Below are positions 6,533 to 12,579 of a DNA stretch of 64,000 nt, one piece after another; position 1 is the first letter of the stretch; each line of letters starts with the position of its first letter. Source of the stretch: Escherichia coli phage AZ21. The stretch lies in the sequence record LC788708.1, one strand, 5' to 3'. The notes under the pieces are model-generated. The model saw nothing but the letters and a program-made list of their open reading frames with translations, had not been told where the DNA came from and searched no databases. A program made the translations under genes and the position numbers.

Positions 6533-6607
6533 CGGGGTGTAGTCTAAGGGAGAGGCAGGAGTCTTCTAAATTCCTTTATGCAGGTTCGAATCCTGTCACC
6601 TCGGCCA
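6533..6607 (+). tRNA. tRNA-Arg (anticodon UCU)
   Basis: Acceptor CGGGGTG/CACCTCG, D-stem GTCT/AGGC, anticodon stem GGAGT/ATTCC with loop CTTCTAA, T-arm GCAGG-TTCGAAT-CCTGT, encoded CCA. Confidence 0.75.
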
Positions 6608-6641
6608 ATTTTATTAACTGTAACTAAAACAAAGGAAACAT

Positions 6642-7589
6642 ATGTTTAATACTAAAAATATGAAAGAATTGACTTCTGAGCAGAAAGTAATTCGTACTAT
6701 TAAACGTTGGGGTATTGGTGCTGTAGTTGGTTTAGCAGGTTTAATCCTAGCTTTTAATTCGTATACCATTGTTTCTGATGGTACGGTTAAAACCCAAACA
6801 TTCCTGGGTAAAGTAGACCCTAATCCAGTATTACCTGGTTTCCATCTTGTAAACCCGTTTGCATCTTTCGATACTTTTAGTACGAAAGATATTTCTATGA
6901 AACTGGATAAACTTCAGGTTCCTAGCCAGGATAAGTTTAAGTCTACAGTTGACATTACCGTTATGTTGCAGTTTGATGGTGCTAAAGCTCCTATTAACCG
7001 TGTTAACGCAGGTACTCAGGATCAAGCTCTGAACAAGTACGTTGAAGAGAAGATGCTGTCTACGATTCGTGAGTTTGGTAAGTCTGTACCAAAAGCACAA
7101 GATCTGTTCGACGCTAAGATTCAGGCTCAACTGCAAACCGCTATTCAGCAAGAAGTAGAAGAGTATGCGCGTCCTTATGGCTACACCGTTAAGCAAGTAT
7201 TCCTTCAGGATATTACTCTGCCACCGGTAATCATGGAACAGGTACAAAACACCAAAGTTCGTGAAGAACAAGTTAACGCTGCAAAAGCTGAACTAGCTCG
7301 TGTTGAACAAGAAGCACAGCAGAAAGTTAAGCAAGCTGAGGCTGATCGTTCTGCTCGTGAAAATATGGCAGTAGCTAACGAACGTGACGCAGATGCTAAA
7401 CTGTATGCGGCTAAGAAAGAAGCTGAAGCTAACACCGCTCTGCAGCGTACCATCACTCCAGAGATGATTCGCTGGAAACAGCTGGAAGTTGATATGAAAC
7501 GCGCTGAAAAATATCAGGGTGGCGTTCCTCAGACTGTTGTAGGTACTGGTTATGATGGCCAGATGATTATGGATATGCGTAATAAGTAA
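6642..7589 (+). CDS. SPFH/band-7 (prohibitin/HflC-like) membrane protein
   Basis: 315 aa; N-terminal TM helix then TQTFLGKV...PGFHLVNPF...TVDITVM SPFH-like core and long Ala/Glu/Lys coiled coil; followed by strong terminator. Confidence 0.65.
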   Translation: MFNTKNMKELTSEQKVIRTIKRWGIGAVVGLAGLILAFNSYTIVSDGTVKTQTFLGKVDPNPVLPGFHLVNPFASFDTFSTKDISMKLDKLQVPSQDKFKSTVDITVMLQFDGAKAPINRVNAGTQDQALNKYVEEKMLSTIREFGKSVPKAQDLFDAKIQAQLQTAIQQEVEEYARPYGYTVKQVFLQDITLPPVIMEQVQNTKVREEQVNAAKAELARVEQEAQQKVKQAEADRSARENMAVANERDADAKLYAAKKEAEANTALQRTITPEMIRWKQLEVDMKRAEKYQGGVPQTVVGTGYDGQMIMDMRNK

Positions 7590-7612
7590 TAGTTACACGT
7601 AATCTTCGAAAC

Positions 7613-7647
7613 AAGCCCGCGTTTCCTCCGAGAGCGCGGGCTTTTCT
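7613..7647 (+). terminator. rho-independent terminator
   Basis: AAGCCCGCG-loop-CGCGGGCTT followed by TTTTCT. Confidence 0.75.
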
Positions 7648-7792
7648 GTATTTAAGGCAAAAGAAAAGCCCATAAGTTATTCAACTAAGGTCTTTAGTAC
7701 TTAATTCTTTAGAATCATATACTATTATTGCAGCAACAACGTGCTACCACTAAATGCCCTACGATTTTCCTCTAAAAAGTTAAAAAATTCGA

Positions 7793-7821
7793 TTGCTTGA
7801 ATGCTAAATTCTCTGTATAAT
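7793..7821 (+). promoter_or_regulatory. T5-type early sigma70 promoter
   Basis: TTGCTT-17-TATAAT, leader TTTATAAATTTGAGAGAGG. Confidence 0.65.
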
Positions 7822-7851
7822 ATATTTATAAATTTGAGAGAGGAATCAAAT

Positions 7852-8148
7852 ATGAAACGCATTGTACTTGCATTGACTCTAGTATCTACTTCTGTATTTG
7901 CTGCTCCACAACAGGAACTTTGTCAAGTTCAAGTTTGTAATAAGCTAGAACGATTTACTTTGGATATTTGGTCACACATTAAAGATAATATGGGTGAGCA
8001 ATGTTTTGATATTGTTCTGCCAAAAGAACAAGCTGTTCCTGGTGCTGTTCTCAGCTCAGAATCACGTTGGTGGCAAGGTTCTTCTATCAATCCAACTAAG
8101 AAGTCAGTGACACGTATCAAACAAGTGTATCAGTGCAGTGTTCAGTAA
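7852..8148 (+). CDS. small secreted protein
   Basis: Signal peptide MKRIVLALTLVSTSVFAAP; RBS GAGAGAGGAATCAAATATG; upstream in-frame extension overlaps promoter so start set at 7852. Confidence 0.5.
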   Translation: MKRIVLALTLVSTSVFAAPQQELCQVQVCNKLERFTLDIWSHIKDNMGEQCFDIVLPKEQAVPGAVLSSESRWWQGSSINPTKKSVTRIKQVYQCSVQ

Positions 8149-8156
8149 AATTTCAC

Positions 8157-8185
8157 TTGCTTAATGCCGAAATTTTCTATATAAT
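8157..8185 (+). promoter_or_regulatory. T5-type early sigma70 promoter
   Basis: TTGCTT-17-TATAAT. Confidence 0.65.
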
Positions 8186-8216
8186 ATATTCTATAAATTA
8201 TAGATAGGAGTCATAT

Positions 8217-8735
8217 ATGACTGTTGACGAGTTAAAACAACATCTTTTATCTAGGGGCTTTGATAGTGATAAGTATCACTGTTGGCTCTCTCCACATGGA
8301 TGGTTAACAGTTCCACTGTATGATTTCTCTGGCATGTTACGTGGATATCAAACATATAACCCTAGTGCAGCTAAAGGTCATGGAAAATGTCCTTCTGAAG
8401 CTAAATATTTTACGCATTCTTCTACTCAATGTCTATGGGGTTTAGAAACTCTTACAGGTAATGAAGACCTAGTATTAGTTGCAGAATCTGTATTTAAAGC
8501 TGTGGCACTACACAACGCGGGATATCCCGCACTAGCAATGCTAGGATCTTCCCCTAGCAAAGCACTGCTAAAGCAGCTAAAATTACAACCTTTTAAAGTA
8601 GTAGCCGTAGGCGATAATGATTCTGCTGGTGAGAAGTTTGCTAAAAAACTAAATGGGTTTACTTCCCTCATGGATTTAGATGAAATGAATACAGAAAACT
8701 TGAAAAATTTTCTTGCCATGAAGCTAAATTTCTAA
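8217..8735 (+). CDS. Toprim-domain (DnaG-like) protein
   Basis: 172 aa; VLVAESVFKAVALHNAGYPALAMLGS...VVAVGDNDSAGEKFAKKL resembles primase Toprim E...DxD motif; no zinc-ribbon or polymerase domain. Confidence 0.45.
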   Translation: MTVDELKQHLLSRGFDSDKYHCWLSPHGWLTVPLYDFSGMLRGYQTYNPSAAKGHGKCPSEAKYFTHSSTQCLWGLETLTGNEDLVLVAESVFKAVALHNAGYPALAMLGSSPSKALLKQLKLQPFKVVAVGDNDSAGEKFAKKLNGFTSLMDLDEMNTENLKNFLAMKLNF

Positions 8736-8741
8736 TATAAT
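8713..8741 (+). promoter_or_regulatory. promoter embedded in 3' end of Toprim gene, driving tRNA-Ser/Met
   Basis: TTGCCA-17-TATAAT then TTCATAAATTTGG immediately before tRNA-Ser. Confidence 0.55.
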
Positions 8742-8755
8742 ATATTCATAAATTT

Positions 8756-8849
8756 GGAAGATTAACCCTAAAGGTAAGGGAGCTGTTTGCTAAACAGCCA
8801 GTAGCTGTGGAGACACGGTGTGCCAGTTCGAATCTGGCATCTTCCTCCA
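8756..8849 (+). tRNA. tRNA-Ser (anticodon GCU), type II
   Basis: Acceptor GGAAGAT/ATCTTCC, anticodon stem GCTGT/ACAGC with loop TTGCTAA, long variable arm CTGTG-GAGA-CACGG, T-arm GCCAG-TTCGAAT-CTGGC, CCA. Confidence 0.75.
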
Positions 8850-8854
8850 AATTT

Positions 8855-8932
8855 GGTTCTCAAGCTCATTTGGTATGAGCCGTCGCCTCATAAGCGAAAG
8901 GTAGGCAGGTTCGAATCCTCCGGGAGCCACCA
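8855..8932 (+). tRNA. tRNA-Met/Ile-type (anticodon CAU)
   Basis: Acceptor GGTTCTC/GGGAGCC (G-U pairs), D-stem GCTC/GAGC, anticodon loop CTCATAA, T-loop TTCGAAT, CCA. Confidence 0.65.
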
Positions 8933-8951
8933 AATTAAATAAGGACAACTA

Positions 8952-9140
8952 ATGGAATTATTCATAGTTTCTATTAAATTTGCACAAGATAGAGAACATT
9001 CGGACGAGTTTAAACAAGGGTACAGACTAGTAAAGGCTACATCTGAACTACATGCTATGGACAAAGTAGTAGACTATATGTATAAAGTAGAAGACGTTTA
9101 CTACGTCAATGCTTTAGAAGCCTCAAAAGTAATTAACTAG
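8952..9140 (+). CDS. hypothetical protein
   Basis: 62 aa ORF immediately after tRNA pair, RBS AAGGACAACTAATG. Confidence 0.4.
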   Translation: MELFIVSIKFAQDREHSDEFKQGYRLVKATSELHAMDKVVDYMYKVEDVYYVNALEASKVIN

Positions 9141-9148
9141 GAGACTAT

Positions 9149-9334
9149 ATGTCCAAATTTCAAGAACTCAAGCAAGAGCTAGAAGAGTGTGCCTGCCCAA
9201 AATGCTTCGGAGTAGGTGAGTGGAACGATGCTGAACCCGGTGATACACGGTATAATACATACGTTTGTACATATTGTAATGGTTCTGGTATTAATCCTGA
9301 ATGTGGTATTTCTCTAGACATTGAGCGAGGTTAA
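9149..9334 (+). CDS. small zinc-finger protein (DnaJ-type CxxCxGxG repeats)
   Basis: 61 aa; CPKCFGVGE and CTYCNGSGI motifs; RBS AGGAGACTATATG. Confidence 0.45.
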   Translation: MSKFQELKQELEECACPKCFGVGEWNDAEPGDTRYNTYVCTYCNGSGINPECGISLDIERG

Positions 9335-9674
9335 GATGGATATTTTTACTACTCCGGCAATAAACCTTTTAGGTGTTGGCTTGTTCCAAGCTACGGTGTA
9401 TCGTACTGATGATTCTACTGATGTGGTAACGTTCATCGTACCTGAGTTCTTCCTAGAAAAGTTCTTTGAAGAGTTTGAGCAGTTCCGTGAAGAACACAAT
9501 GCTCATTCCGATATGGAAGATCTAGCAGCTATGTTCCCTGCGGTTTACGGCTATATCTTTGAAGGTAATGGCCTAGATCTTAATAAATCTGAACTCGTTG
9601 AACTTAACTGGGGCATCAATTTTGAAGTTGGCTCTCCATTCCCTCGATATTTCCAGGGTTTAGAGATTCGCTAA
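9321..9674 (+). CDS. hypothetical acidic protein
   Basis: 117 aa ORF overlapping stop of upstream gene. Confidence 0.45.
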   Translation: MSEVKMDIFTTPAINLLGVGLFQATVYRTDDSTDVVTFIVPEFFLEKFFEEFEQFREEHNAHSDMEDLAAMFPAVYGYIFEGNGLDLNKSELVELNWGINFEVGSPFPRYFQGLEIR

Positions 9675-9682
9675 GATTACAT

Positions 9683-9759
9683 GGGGGTGTAATCGAATTG
9701 GCATAGGTACTGGACTTAAAATTCAGGTTTTGTGGGTTCGAATCCCACCACCCCTACCA
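9683..9759 (+). tRNA. tRNA, anticodon read as UAA (Leu-type) on short-variable-arm scaffold
   Basis: Acceptor GGGGGTG/CACCCCT, anticodon stem CTGGA/TTCAG with loop CTTAAAA, T-arm GTGGG-TTCGAAT-CCCAC, CCA; isotype uncertain. Confidence 0.6.
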
Positions 9760-9774
9760 AATTAAGGAAATAAA

Positions 9775-9897
9775 ATGAAAGCTATTAAGAAAGCACTGCG
9801 TAAATTTATGTATTGTCGTTTTCATAGCATCAAGGCTTCAACTAATGGTACTACTTACGATCGCTATGATCCTAAGTTTGGCTTACATTCTAAATAA
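9775..9897 (+). CDS. small hypothetical protein (40 aa)
   Basis: Short ORF with RBS AAGGAAATAAAATG right after tRNA. Confidence 0.3.
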   Translation: MKAIKKALRKFMYCRFHSIKASTNGTTYDRYDPKFGLHSK

Positions 9898-9910
9898 CTG
9901 GAGAAAACAA

Positions 9911-10117
9911 ATGGCTAATCCTGAAATTACGGCACAACGCTTTATGCTGAAAGGAATTATTGCTGAAGCAGGCATGACAGAAGAAGTTGCAGATTTTCAA
10001 AAGCAATTCCTCAATATTCTCACTCAAGCCAAAGAGCTAGGAGAGAAAGAACATGGCGCGGCTATTATGGCAATCACATTGGTTGGGCTTGATCTGGCTG
10101 AAGAATCAGGAGTTTAA
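9911..10117 (+). CDS. hypothetical protein
   Basis: 68 aa from ATG with RBS GGAGAAAACAAATG; in-frame upstream extension lacks RBS. Confidence 0.4.
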   Translation: MANPEITAQRFMLKGIIAEAGMTEEVADFQKQFLNILTQAKELGEKEHGAAIMAITLVGLDLAEESGV

Positions 10118-10206
10118 CTCCTCCAAGCAGAAATTTTAAAAATGTACTTGCTTTTTGCTTAAGATTTCTGCTATAATAGTTATATAAGTTGATGAGAGGA
10201 ATCAGA

Positions 10207-10482
10207 ATGTTAAAACGTTTTGCAGCAACTGGTATTGAAAGCTCAGTATGTAAATCCTGGGGTGGTTGGGAAGGTGAGATCGAGTGGCTTCAGTTCTACA
10301 ATGTAGAACTTCTTCCAGAGATCAAAGCTCAATGTATTGAGGCTGGTATGGCTCCTGATGCTACGGCTGATGTTGAAATCAGCATGAATAAGCTAGAGGG
10401 TCGAGTAGTCACTGTTACTGATGAAGGTGAAGAGGTATTCGAACTTCCATTCACTTTGAAAGTCACTCCTTCATTTGATTAA
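10207..10482 (+). CDS. hypothetical protein
   Basis: 92 aa; promoter and RBS GAGAGGAATCAGAATG. Confidence 0.45.
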   Translation: MLKRFAATGIESSVCKSWGGWEGEIEWLQFYNVELLPEIKAQCIEAGMAPDATADVEISMNKLEGRVVTVTDEGEEVFELPFTLKVTPSFD

Positions 10483-10518
10483 CTGATACAGCACTGAGCA
10501 AGTTCTTTAAAATTTGAC

Positions 10519-10547
10519 TTGCTCAGTGCCTTAAAACTTGATATAAT
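10519..10547 (+). promoter_or_regulatory. promoter upstream of tRNA-Tyr
   Basis: TTGCTC-17-TATAAT. Confidence 0.55.
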
Positions 10548-10612
10548 ATTTATCTAATTTGGAAACATATTTAAAAGTGTTTAAATGAGAATTTTTGAAT
10601 ACTTCTAAATAT

Positions 10613-10700
10613 GGGCGTTTATTCCGTAAGTGGTAGCGGAGGGGATTGTAAATCCCTGGTCATTGCGACTCGAGTGGTTCGACTCCATTAACGCCCACCA
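10613..10700 (+). tRNA. tRNA-Tyr (anticodon GUA), type II
   Basis: Acceptor GGGCGTT/AACGCCC, anticodon stem GGGGA/TCCCT with loop TTGTAAA, long variable arm, T-loop TTCGACT, CCA. Confidence 0.7.
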
Positions 10701-10717
10701 AATTAAAGGTAAAGGAT

Positions 10718-10909
10718 ATGTATATTGATCGGATAATTCAAGAAGCTGCAAATAGGGGTATTATACAGTTGGGTTCACCCGCTGATATAAATAAAGATCT
10801 AATATTAGAAAGCCTCACATTTGGTACAGCTAACTTTGGTCGCGATAGTAATCGTCGATATAGCTTGAAGTTATCTGCACTATCTTTTATCAAGTATAAC
10901 AAATTATAG
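10718..10909 (+). CDS. hypothetical protein
   Basis: 63 aa ORF between two tRNAs, RBS AAAGGTAAAGGATATG. Confidence 0.3.
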   Translation: MYIDRIIQEAANRGIIQLGSPADINKDLILESLTFGTANFGRDSNRRYSLKLSALSFIKYNKL

Positions 10910-10983
10910 TTAGTTGGCAGAGTGGTTATGCACCTCCTTCATACGGAGCGACTACAGTGGTTCAACTCCACTACTAACTACCA
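10908..10983 (+). tRNA. tRNA-Met/Ile-type (anticodon CAU)
   Basis: Acceptor AGTTAGT/ACTAACT, anticodon stem CTCC/GGAG with loop TTCATAC, T-arm AGTGG-TTCAACT-CCACT, CCA. Confidence 0.65.
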
Positions 10984-11166
10984 AAGATAAGATCAGGCCT
11001 TTGTGCCAGATCTCTGTGTTTATTAAACTGAATGGGACTATCAATCCACAAGCCGGACTACGAGCGATTATCGGGTATTCACTTAATAAACAGCCTGCCT
11101 CCCAGTTTTTATCTTGCTTCTGGGTTAACAAAAAGCTGAGCCAAATTCTAACATCAGGGAGATCTA

Positions 11167-11535
11167 ATGAAAGCATATCAAAGTCTTAAGTCTGGCGTAA
11201 TTAACCTTGTTCATGATAACCAGATCATTCAGCTATATTCTAAAGATGGTGAACTTAAACAAAAGGTTCTAGTTGAAGATCTAGAGGGTATCACACCTCA
11301 TTTTGACCCTGAGGCCTTCCGCATTGTAGATGTAGAAGTGGTTCCTCAAGTCGAGGGTGGTCAGCACCTAAATGTCAATGTGTTAAGCCGTGATCAGCTT
11401 TTGGATGCACAGAAACATCCTGAAAAATATCCTCAGTTGACCATCCGTGTCTCTGGCTATGCTGTTCGATTTAACGCATTGACGCGTGAACAACAGAACG
11501 ACGTTATTAGTCGTACATTTACTCAGGCGATATAA
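11167..11535 (+). CDS. grcA: GrcA-like autonomous glycyl-radical cofactor protein
   Basis: 122 aa; C-terminus [12 protein letters not shown]...[36 protein letters not shown] closely matches the E. coli GrcA/PFL glycyl-radical domain incl. RVSGY glycine site. Confidence 0.8.
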
Positions 11536-11616
11536 TGGGGTTTGGATACGATTTCTCCCAACTACGCAAGGTAGTCGAGCAAACTCCATTTATCTCCCAA
11601 GTTTTAGGAGAAATGT

Positions 11617-11916
11617 GTGGATCGAGCATTAAGACGCCATCACCGGCAACGTGTGAAAAACAATCGCAAGAAGTATTGGACAGTCTTCCCACATGAAGAA
11701 AGCCCTAAGAGGTTAGGCATTATCACTACCACTCCTTGCATCTGTTCTTGTTGGATGTGTGGGAATCCTCGCAAATACTATAAGAATAGTAAAGCAGGCA
11801 TGAAAATTTCGGAGATTAAAAAGATGGATGCAATGATTATGGGCATCACCTTTACAGGTGGTATCTCTGATGAATTCGACGGTTTTGTAACTCAGGATAT
11901 TGTCGAAATTATCTAA
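11617..11916 (+). CDS. hypothetical Cys-rich basic protein
   Basis: 99 aa; TPCICSCWMCGNPRKYY cluster; followed by terminator. Confidence 0.45.
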   Translation: MDRALRRHHRQRVKNNRKKYWTVFPHEESPKRLGIITTTPCICSCWMCGNPRKYYKNSKAGMKISEIKKMDAMIMGITFTGGISDEFDGFVTQDIVEII

Positions 11917-11925
11917 TTAATAATA

Positions 11926-11962
11926 AACCCCAGCTATTGAATACGTAGTCTGGGGTTTTCTT
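11926..11962 (+). terminator. rho-independent terminator
   Basis: AACCCCAG-loop-CTGGGGTT followed by TTCTT. Confidence 0.65.
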
Positions 11963-12225: not shown

Positions 12226-12579
12226 ATGAGCCGTACATATCGTAAACAATCGGGGAATCGTCACTGGCGTGATGCACATCGTTCTAAATTCAACTTTACT
12301 CTTGGGTACAATCGTCGTTTCTTTGCTTTGAAGGAGCCAGCAGTCCCGTATACTAGAGAAGAAGTTGAAAAGGAATTACAAGACGATATCATTAAATATG
12401 AGAAGAAGGATGGTTATAACTGGAATTCCATTAGTAAGAATGTTAAGTGGCACTCTAATAAAATGGTTCGTCAAGGGAATCGTCAAGAACTTCACCGCGT
12501 GATGAAAGATCCAGAAAATTACGACTATAATCGCGATCATGACATGCGTAAGCGTGGGTTATGGTGGTGCTATGACTAA
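12226..12579 (+). CDS. hypothetical protein
   Basis: 117 aa ORF, RBS GGAGGTATTATG. Confidence 0.5.
   Translation: MSRTYRKQSGNRHWRDAHRSKFNFTLGYNRRFFALKEPAVPYTREEVEKELQDDIIKYEKKDGYNWNSISKNVKWHSNKMVRQGNRQELHRVMKDPENYDYNRDHDMRKRGLWWCYD

Follow-up and report, generated by a model that had tools for sequence, protein, structure and literature searches.

A probable GrcA-like autonomous glycyl radical cofactor encoded at the end of the tRNA cluster of the T5-like Escherichia coli phage AZ21

Escherichia coli YfiD (GrcA) and the phage T4 protein Y06I are activated by pyruvate formate-lyase (PFL) activase and return activity to PFL that has been cleaved by oxygen (Wagner et al., 2001, cited in PMC8683613). 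These are described as the only two validated spare-part proteins, both of which need the activase (PFL-AE) and bind cleaved PFL (PMC8683613). In vivo, GrcA together with PflA restores formate production to a strain carrying PflB-G734A, and the radical is transferred from G102 of GrcA to C419 of PflB (PMC12338860).

The gene described here lies within a 64,000-nucleotide stretch of DNA from E. coli phage AZ21 (sequence record LC788708.1), which is referred to below as the window and from the first nucleotide of which all positions are counted. The window belongs to a T5-like phage (Tequintavirus) and shares approximately 99.99% identity with E. coli phage AZ23. In the 2 kb surrounding the gene, the identity is 100% to AZ23 (LC788707; Demerecviridae, Tequintavirus; sewage origin) and 90–99% to several hundred other phages of the T5-like type from Salmonella and Escherichia. 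In the list of open reading frames (ORFs), an ATG-to-stop frame on the plus strand occupies positions 11167–11535, exactly as the original prediction had placed it, and encodes a protein of 122 residues and approximately 14 kDa. The protein is small and standalone, in that its ORF has a separate ribosome binding site and start codon, is preceded by a tRNA gene, and is followed by a stop codon; the GGGAG sequence ahead of the start codon is found at the same place as the ribosome binding site annotated in BF23. The antisense ORF at 11383–11589 (68 aa) and the other overlapping ORFs were rejected as mechanical ORFs inside a strongly selected gene. The product is the direct ortholog of T5.056 and of ORF trn2.21 of BF23/Salmonella phage 5, with 87–93% identity. 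The original prediction of a GrcA-like spare-part protein is supported, in that all in silico tests agree with a cofactor of the GrcA/YfiD type, and, judging from its sequence, the protein is quite likely to be a spare part that replaces the oxygen-broken radical end of host PFL.

The AZ21 protein resembles the product of the T4-type gene vs.6, which in T4 we take to be Y06I, in being phage-encoded, approximately 120 residues long, arranged in two parts, and introduced by MKAYQ. Both belong to PHROG 1209, which the AZ21 protein matches over its full length (E = 7.5e-47, residues 1–122 on positions 1–121 of a profile of 121). With RB6 vs.6 as the T4-like sequence, BLASTP aligned the two proteins end to end (residues 1–122, 52% identity). 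The two nevertheless differ in both parts: the C-terminal domain of RB6 vs.6 is identical to that of E. coli GrcA at 60 of 61 positions, whereas the AZ21 domain agrees with GrcA, PflB, and vs.6 at 48–49 of 61, and the N-terminal half of the AZ21 protein has diverged first 33 residues and carries an insertion of approximately six residues, which the multiple alignment places in the T5-like clade. The setting differs as well, and is the e–regB region in T4-like phages and a tRNA cluster in AZ21. The C-terminal domains of phage GrcA-like proteins were observed to track different host genes, namely GrcA in RB6 vs.6 and TdcE in T5-like phages, and these differing affinities may have arisen by separate acquisitions or by gene conversion with host genes.

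The C-terminal 60 residues had been called a near copy of the glycyl radical domain of GrcA and PFL, and this is a fair description at approximately 80% identity, which is far beyond chance and short of identical. The Pfam family Gly_radical (PF01228), for which the cut-off is 22.2 bits, matched residues 62–103 with a score of 66.1, and matches in the PDB included E. coli YfiD/GrcA (6owr, E = 2.4e-29) and PFL (1h16, E = 1.7e-26). By BLASTP, 55 of 74 positions were identical to E. coli K-12 GrcA (74%, residues 51–122, E = 1e-37) and 56 of 97 to PflB (E = 6e-33). Over the last 61 residues, the identities amount to 49/61 with GrcA (80%), 48/61 with PflB (79%), and 52/61 with TdcE (85%). Pairwise alignment to E. 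coli GrcA and to the C-terminus of PflB, which had been suggested as a check, showed that the context of the radical glycine is kept: the predicted RVSGY is intact within a RVSGYAV loop that is identical in the phage protein, GrcA, PflB, and TdcE, and Gly97 of this loop is equivalent, in alignment numbering, to G102 of GrcA and G734 of PflB. Furthermore, the family alignment of 55–59 sequences has 33 invariant columns, including RVSGYA-RFN-LT-EQQ, and residues 62–122 contain every one of them. When the modelled C-terminal domain was searched with Foldseek, the top solved match was the NMR structure of YfiD (6owr, 80% identity, TM(target) 0.76), and the next matches were the C-termini of other glycyl radical enzymes. 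PF01228, RVSGYAV, and the 6owr fold together identify a PFL-type C-terminal radical domain, and its likeness to the C-termini of PflB and TdcE extends over the radical glycine as well as the fragment that oxygen cleavage releases. The same residues, 62–122, match the short GrcA2 and GrcA3 proteins (NF008341 and NF038360; approximately 80 aa) nearly end to end with 90 and 116 bits, although these scores are under the respective cut-offs of 145 and 158, and GrcA2 and GrcA3 lack the N-terminal half of approximately 60 residues that is present in the AZ21 protein. The alignment also revealed an E. coli-type GrcA of 137 aa, from an NCBI source, in which the segment around the radical glycine is duplicated internally in tandem; it may represent a genuine variant or an artefact of assembly.

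The AZ21 protein has in common with E. coli GrcA/YfiD (6owr, TIGR04365) a standalone form of approximately 14 kDa, the radical domain with its RVSGYAV loop, and the fold of the C-terminal domain. It differs from GrcA in being encoded by a virulent phage and not by the host, and in scoring below the cut-off of the NCBIfam GrcA equivalog model TIGR04365 (118.3 bits against 170, with residues 54–121 aligned), because the N-terminal half has diverged. When N-terminal halves alone were compared by hhalign, residues 34–62 of the T5-like proteins matched the N-terminal halves of T4-like and jumbo-phage proteins (94.8%), and the latter matched those of bacterial GrcA over their full length (99.2%). 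The direct match of the T5-like half to bacterial GrcA is weak (residues 32–62, 25% probability), and the first approximately 33 residues have no significant profile similarity to bacterial GrcA in hhalign. The multiple alignment is collinear in the N-terminal half, with the successive motifs MKAYQ..., G-x-I-x-L, ...V-E-D..., and F...R-x-V-x-V-E..P. In the AlphaFold2 model of the phage protein (mean pLDDT 78), a beta-rich N-terminal half (residues 1–54, block-mean pLDDT 77–91) is followed by a low-confidence segment at residues 62–72 and then by a helix/hairpin C-terminal domain. Pantoea GrcA, the C-terminal domain of which is that of E. coli, was modelled likewise and gave a similar strand pattern, with a beta-rich N-terminal half (pLDDT 81–88) and the same low-confidence segment, so that the phage and bacterial proteins resemble each other in these models also in the low-confidence strand. 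Residues 1–60 of free E. coli YfiD are disordered by NMR (PMC8683613), and the confident beta prediction in both N-terminal halves may reflect the PFL-bound state. In a fold search with the N-terminal domain, no solved or viral structure outside the family matched significantly. In YfiD, residues 1–60 help to bind cleaved PFL and support activation (PMC8683613); by analogy, the phage N-terminal half may act in the same manner, and its docking could differ from that of YfiD because the first approximately 33 residues are unlike GrcA and this half matters in YfiD.

Homologs were detected by tblastn in 1,583 of 50,697 phage records (approximately 3%), and a protein at least 80% identical was present in 438 phage records, all of them T5-like. 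The remaining homologs are 48–80% identical and occur in T4-like phages (vs.6), in jumbo phages of Klebsiella, Salmonella, Serratia, and Yersinia, and in Vibrio and Aeromonas phages. In a large protein search, the T5-like sequences formed a tight clade (87–98%) separated by a gap from those of other phages (approximately 58%), and bacterial GrcA aligned only over the C-terminal approximately 60%. The full-length ORF with its ribosome binding site is conserved across hundreds of phages of several families. Ratios of dN/dS were calculated by the Nei–Gojobori method from the AZ21 copy and those of T5, BF23, Kenya-K44, and HdH2. Between AZ21 and the other four, whole-gene dN/dS was 0.05–0.15 (dS 0.39–0.76), and over all ten pairs differing in protein sequence it was 0.05–0.16; by part, it was 0–0.11 in the C-terminal domain and 0.08–0.30 in the N-terminal half, and therefore both halves are under purifying selection. 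Across 5,426 E. coli genomes, matches to the gene had only 60–80% DNA identity and covered only its 3′ half (pflB, tdcE), the identity to pflB and tdcE being approximately 75% over nucleotides 184–369 of the gene. Because of this, the gene is not a recent host fragment, and recent capture from the host was rejected, with no near-identical copy in these genomes.

The gene is found at the end of the early tRNA cluster, in which ARAGORN detected six tRNAs from 6533 to 10983; the features of the locus are collected in Table 1. The tRNA-Met likewise neighbours the gene in T5, BF23, Kenya-K44, and HdH2, and the T5 and BF23 genes also share the small ORF after the gene and the same terminator. In BF23, the unit comprises promoter P11, tRNA-Ile, tRNA-Met, ORF 2.21, ORF 2.22, and terminator ter2, in this order, and the order is the same in Kenya-K44 and HdH2. 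T5 has a gap of only 13 nt between tRNA-Met and the gene and lacks the spacer of approximately 170 nt found in AZ21; this spacer is variable and occurs, in whole or in part, in 240 T5-like records. An Rfam search of this leader gave no match and its folding is not unusual (z = +1.08), on which grounds a regulatory RNA or a degraded tRNA was rejected. A promoter just upstream of the gene is unsupported: the leader contains only a weak promoter-like site, at 11125–11154, which matches 9 of 12 consensus positions, and the number of such matches did not exceed that in shuffled sequence. The ORF downstream of the gene has no Pfam family and is, by position alone, the counterpart of T5.055 and BF23 trn2.22. 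The hairpin that closes the pair is nearly identical to the annotated T5 terminator and to ter2 of BF23; it was missed by a simple terminator scanner and was found by RNA folding and by comparison with the annotated terminators.

Table 1. Features of the GrcA-like gene of phage AZ21 and its surroundings (positions within the window)
Feature	Position	Strand	Basis
tRNA-Met(CAT), directly upstream of the gene	10908–10983	+	ARAGORN; Rfam tRNA, 49.5 bits
Spacer/5′ leader of approximately 170 nt between tRNA-Met and the gene	10992–11160	+	Alignment to T5
Shine-Dalgarno-like GGGAG, 5 nt before the ATG	11157–11161	+	Read from the sequence
GrcA-like autonomous glycyl radical cofactor, coding sequence	11167–11535	+	ORF list, Pfam, PHROG, PDB, T5/BF23 annotation, dN/dS
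N-terminal half, residues 1–61, diverged from bacterial GrcA, predicted beta-rich	11167–11349	+	NCBIfam, hhalign, AlphaFold2
C-terminal glycyl radical domain, residues 62–122 (approximately PflB residues 699–759)	11350–11532	+	Identity counts, Foldseek, dN/dS
Codon ggc of Gly97, predicted radical glycine in RVSGYAV	11455–11457	+	Invariant alignment column
Downstream co-oriented ORF of 99 aa, Cys-rich, function unknown	11617–11916	+	ORF list; PHROG 4499, E = 2.7e-39
Intrinsic-terminator hairpin and U-run closing the gene pair	11925–11962	+	Fold of -17.5 kcal/mol, z = -3.54

Several other elements of this region were recorded. Within the tRNA cluster, an ORF of 315 aa at 6642–7589 belongs to the SPFH/Band-7 family (Pfam PF01145; PHROG 200, 'lipoprotein'), an ORF of 172 aa at 8217–8735 is Toprim/primase-fragment-like (PHROG 849), and a strong sigma-70-like promoter match (TTGCCA-17-TATAAT, 11/12) is located at 8713–8741, before a tRNA-Ser. 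Compared with AZ23, the window is without a 1,842-bp segment bearing nadR and pnuC (NAD salvage/nicotinamide riboside uptake) in the region 7589–8217. A stretch of 50 bp at 7806–7855 matches both edges of this segment in AZ23, which suggests that the nadR–pnuC cassette was gained or lost via recombination between direct repeats of approximately 50 bp. Past the terminator, at 12226–12579, an ORF of 117 aa has a full-length match to DUF7295 (E = 1.5e-61), a conserved phage family of unknown function.

The identity counts of the C-terminal domain bear on an alternative in which the spare part is tuned to host TdcE (2-ketobutyrate/pyruvate formate-lyase), instead of or besides PflB. The 25 residues after the radical glycine, which form the piece lost on cleavage, agree with TdcE at 23 positions, with PflB at 20, and with GrcA at 18; the whole domain leans the same way, and TdcE is the best match for 32 of 32 T5-like cluster representatives and for no other listed homolog. 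The signal is weak, however, since it amounts to a difference of three to five residues in a 61-residue block with 33 invariant columns, and the part before the glycine is closest to GrcA (31/36, against 29/36 for TdcE). The origin of the domain, from GrcA or from TdcE, was weighed by these counts and not by a tree, which would not be robust with 33 invariant columns among 61. Since PflB and TdcE share 52 of 61 positions with each other here, a spare part would probably serve both, and a TdcE preference is compatible with the main reading. TdcE is a minor, threonine-induced enzyme, which also counts against such tuning, and on balance it is unlikely. The N-terminal half invites a different thought, because it is diverged and leaves the protein below the GrcA equivalog threshold: the protein might be a decoy or modulator that sequesters PflA or blocks the active-site channel of PFL, and shuts down or redirects host fermentation. 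Early genes of phages often inhibit host enzymes, and this speaks for a decoy, as does the finding that in YfiD the N-terminal half governs the binding of cleaved PFL (PMC8683613). However, all residues invariant in functional GrcA/PFL radical domains are kept, including those after the glycine, whereas a decoy for PflA would need the short RVSGYAV loop only; dN/dS in the C-terminal domain is near 0; and the homolog from T4 does not inhibit PFL but restores its activity (PMC8683613). An inhibitory role is accordingly very improbable.

Some records name the protein 'ribonucleotide reductase subunit', and T5 (T5.099) and AZ23 do encode the anaerobic ribonucleotide reductase NrdD, also a glycyl radical enzyme, for which the protein could in principle be a subunit or spare part. 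Nevertheless, NrdD is absent from the 12 NCBIfam hits, all of which are of the PFL clade, and from the 34 PDB hits, the identity to the C-termini of PFL and TdcE is 79–85%, and nrdD is not adjacent to the gene but lies approximately 20 kb away in AZ23, outside the window. The assignment as a ribonucleotide reductase subunit was rejected, with neither NrdD nor NrdG among the Pfam, NCBIfam, and PDB hits, and any service to NrdD is extremely unlikely. The resemblance to host genes in the C-terminal half only, with approximately three quarters of the DNA positions identical there, would also suit an inert remnant of a captured 3′ end of host pflB or tdcE. Such a remnant is hardly credible, and the dN/dS values together with the conservation refute it: both halves are under purifying selection and the full-length ORF and its ribosome binding site are widely conserved, while the N-terminal half is collinear with the N-terminal halves of GrcA and every E. 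coli match, at 60–80%, is far from a near-identical host copy.

For a spare part of host PFL, the following course can be proposed by homology to YfiD and Y06I. Early in infection, the 14-kDa protein would be made from the transcription unit of the tRNA cluster, and the host radical-SAM activase PflA would remove a hydrogen from the glycine of the RVSGYAV loop, Gly97. Residues 62–122 would then dock into PflB and substitute for a C-terminal radical domain that is cut by oxygen at Gly734 or otherwise inactive, with the N-terminal half assisting docking and activation, and the radical on Gly97 would restart catalysis via Cys419 of PflB. The radical domain of TdcE would probably be replaced too. 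The flux from pyruvate into acetyl-CoA plus formate would thereby be kept, with ATP formed via acetate kinase, in an infected cell that lives by fermentation and is no longer able to renew its own PFL; this would be the benefit to the phage, and an advantage in the gut or under micro-aerobic conditions may follow from it. No phage-encoded activase was seen within the 64-kb window, and the protein would therefore depend on host PflA being present and active. The presence of nrdD in the lineage fits a phage adapted to low-oxygen hosts. The searchable literature yielded no experiment on the T5-like copy.

Public labels for this gene vary and include 'glycyl radical cofactor', 'autonomous glycyl radical cofactor GrcA', 'pyruvate formate-lyase', '2-ketobutyrate formate-lyase', 'acetyltransferase-related', and 'ribonucleotide reductase subunit', and in AZ23 itself the label is 'hypothetical protein'. 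The T5 reference labels T5.056 as 'putative acetyltransferase-related protein, match to IPR001150', and the tRNA-region record of BF23/Salmonella phage 5 reads 'ORF trn 2.21; putative formate acetyltransferase'; both were annotated by domain match alone. An entry from Citrobacter phage YZU-L1, named 'ribonucleotide reductase subunit', is a C-terminal fragment of 67 aa. The match to the PFL enzyme model TIGR01255 is limited to positions 683–743 of 744, with 84 bits against a cut-off of 994. The label 'pyruvate formate-lyase' is a misnomer, because the barrel of approximately 700 residues that holds the catalytic Cys418/Cys419 in PflB and TdcE is missing, and the phage protein alone cannot be an enzyme. 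All of these labels should read 'autonomous glycyl radical cofactor'.

The protein clearly belongs to the phage vs.6/Y06I family and has the structure that defines an autonomous glycyl radical cofactor. The spare-part interpretation is the established one for the GrcA/Y06I family, and the finding is already known, because knowledge of phage spare parts dates from 2001 and the gene is annotated in hundreds of genomes. Among enterobacterial phages the gene is a textbook case of an auxiliary metabolic gene, and it matters little beyond the tidying of annotation. A more far-reaching but unlikely reading is that T5-like phages carry a distinct GrcA subfamily with another target preference or docking mode, because the N-terminal half is remodelled, with its insertion and its score below the equivalog threshold, and the tail after the glycine is TdcE-like. 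If this were true, the targets rescued by the subfamily might, for instance, include both TdcE and PflB, or the subfamily might enter undamaged PFL to control host fermentation.
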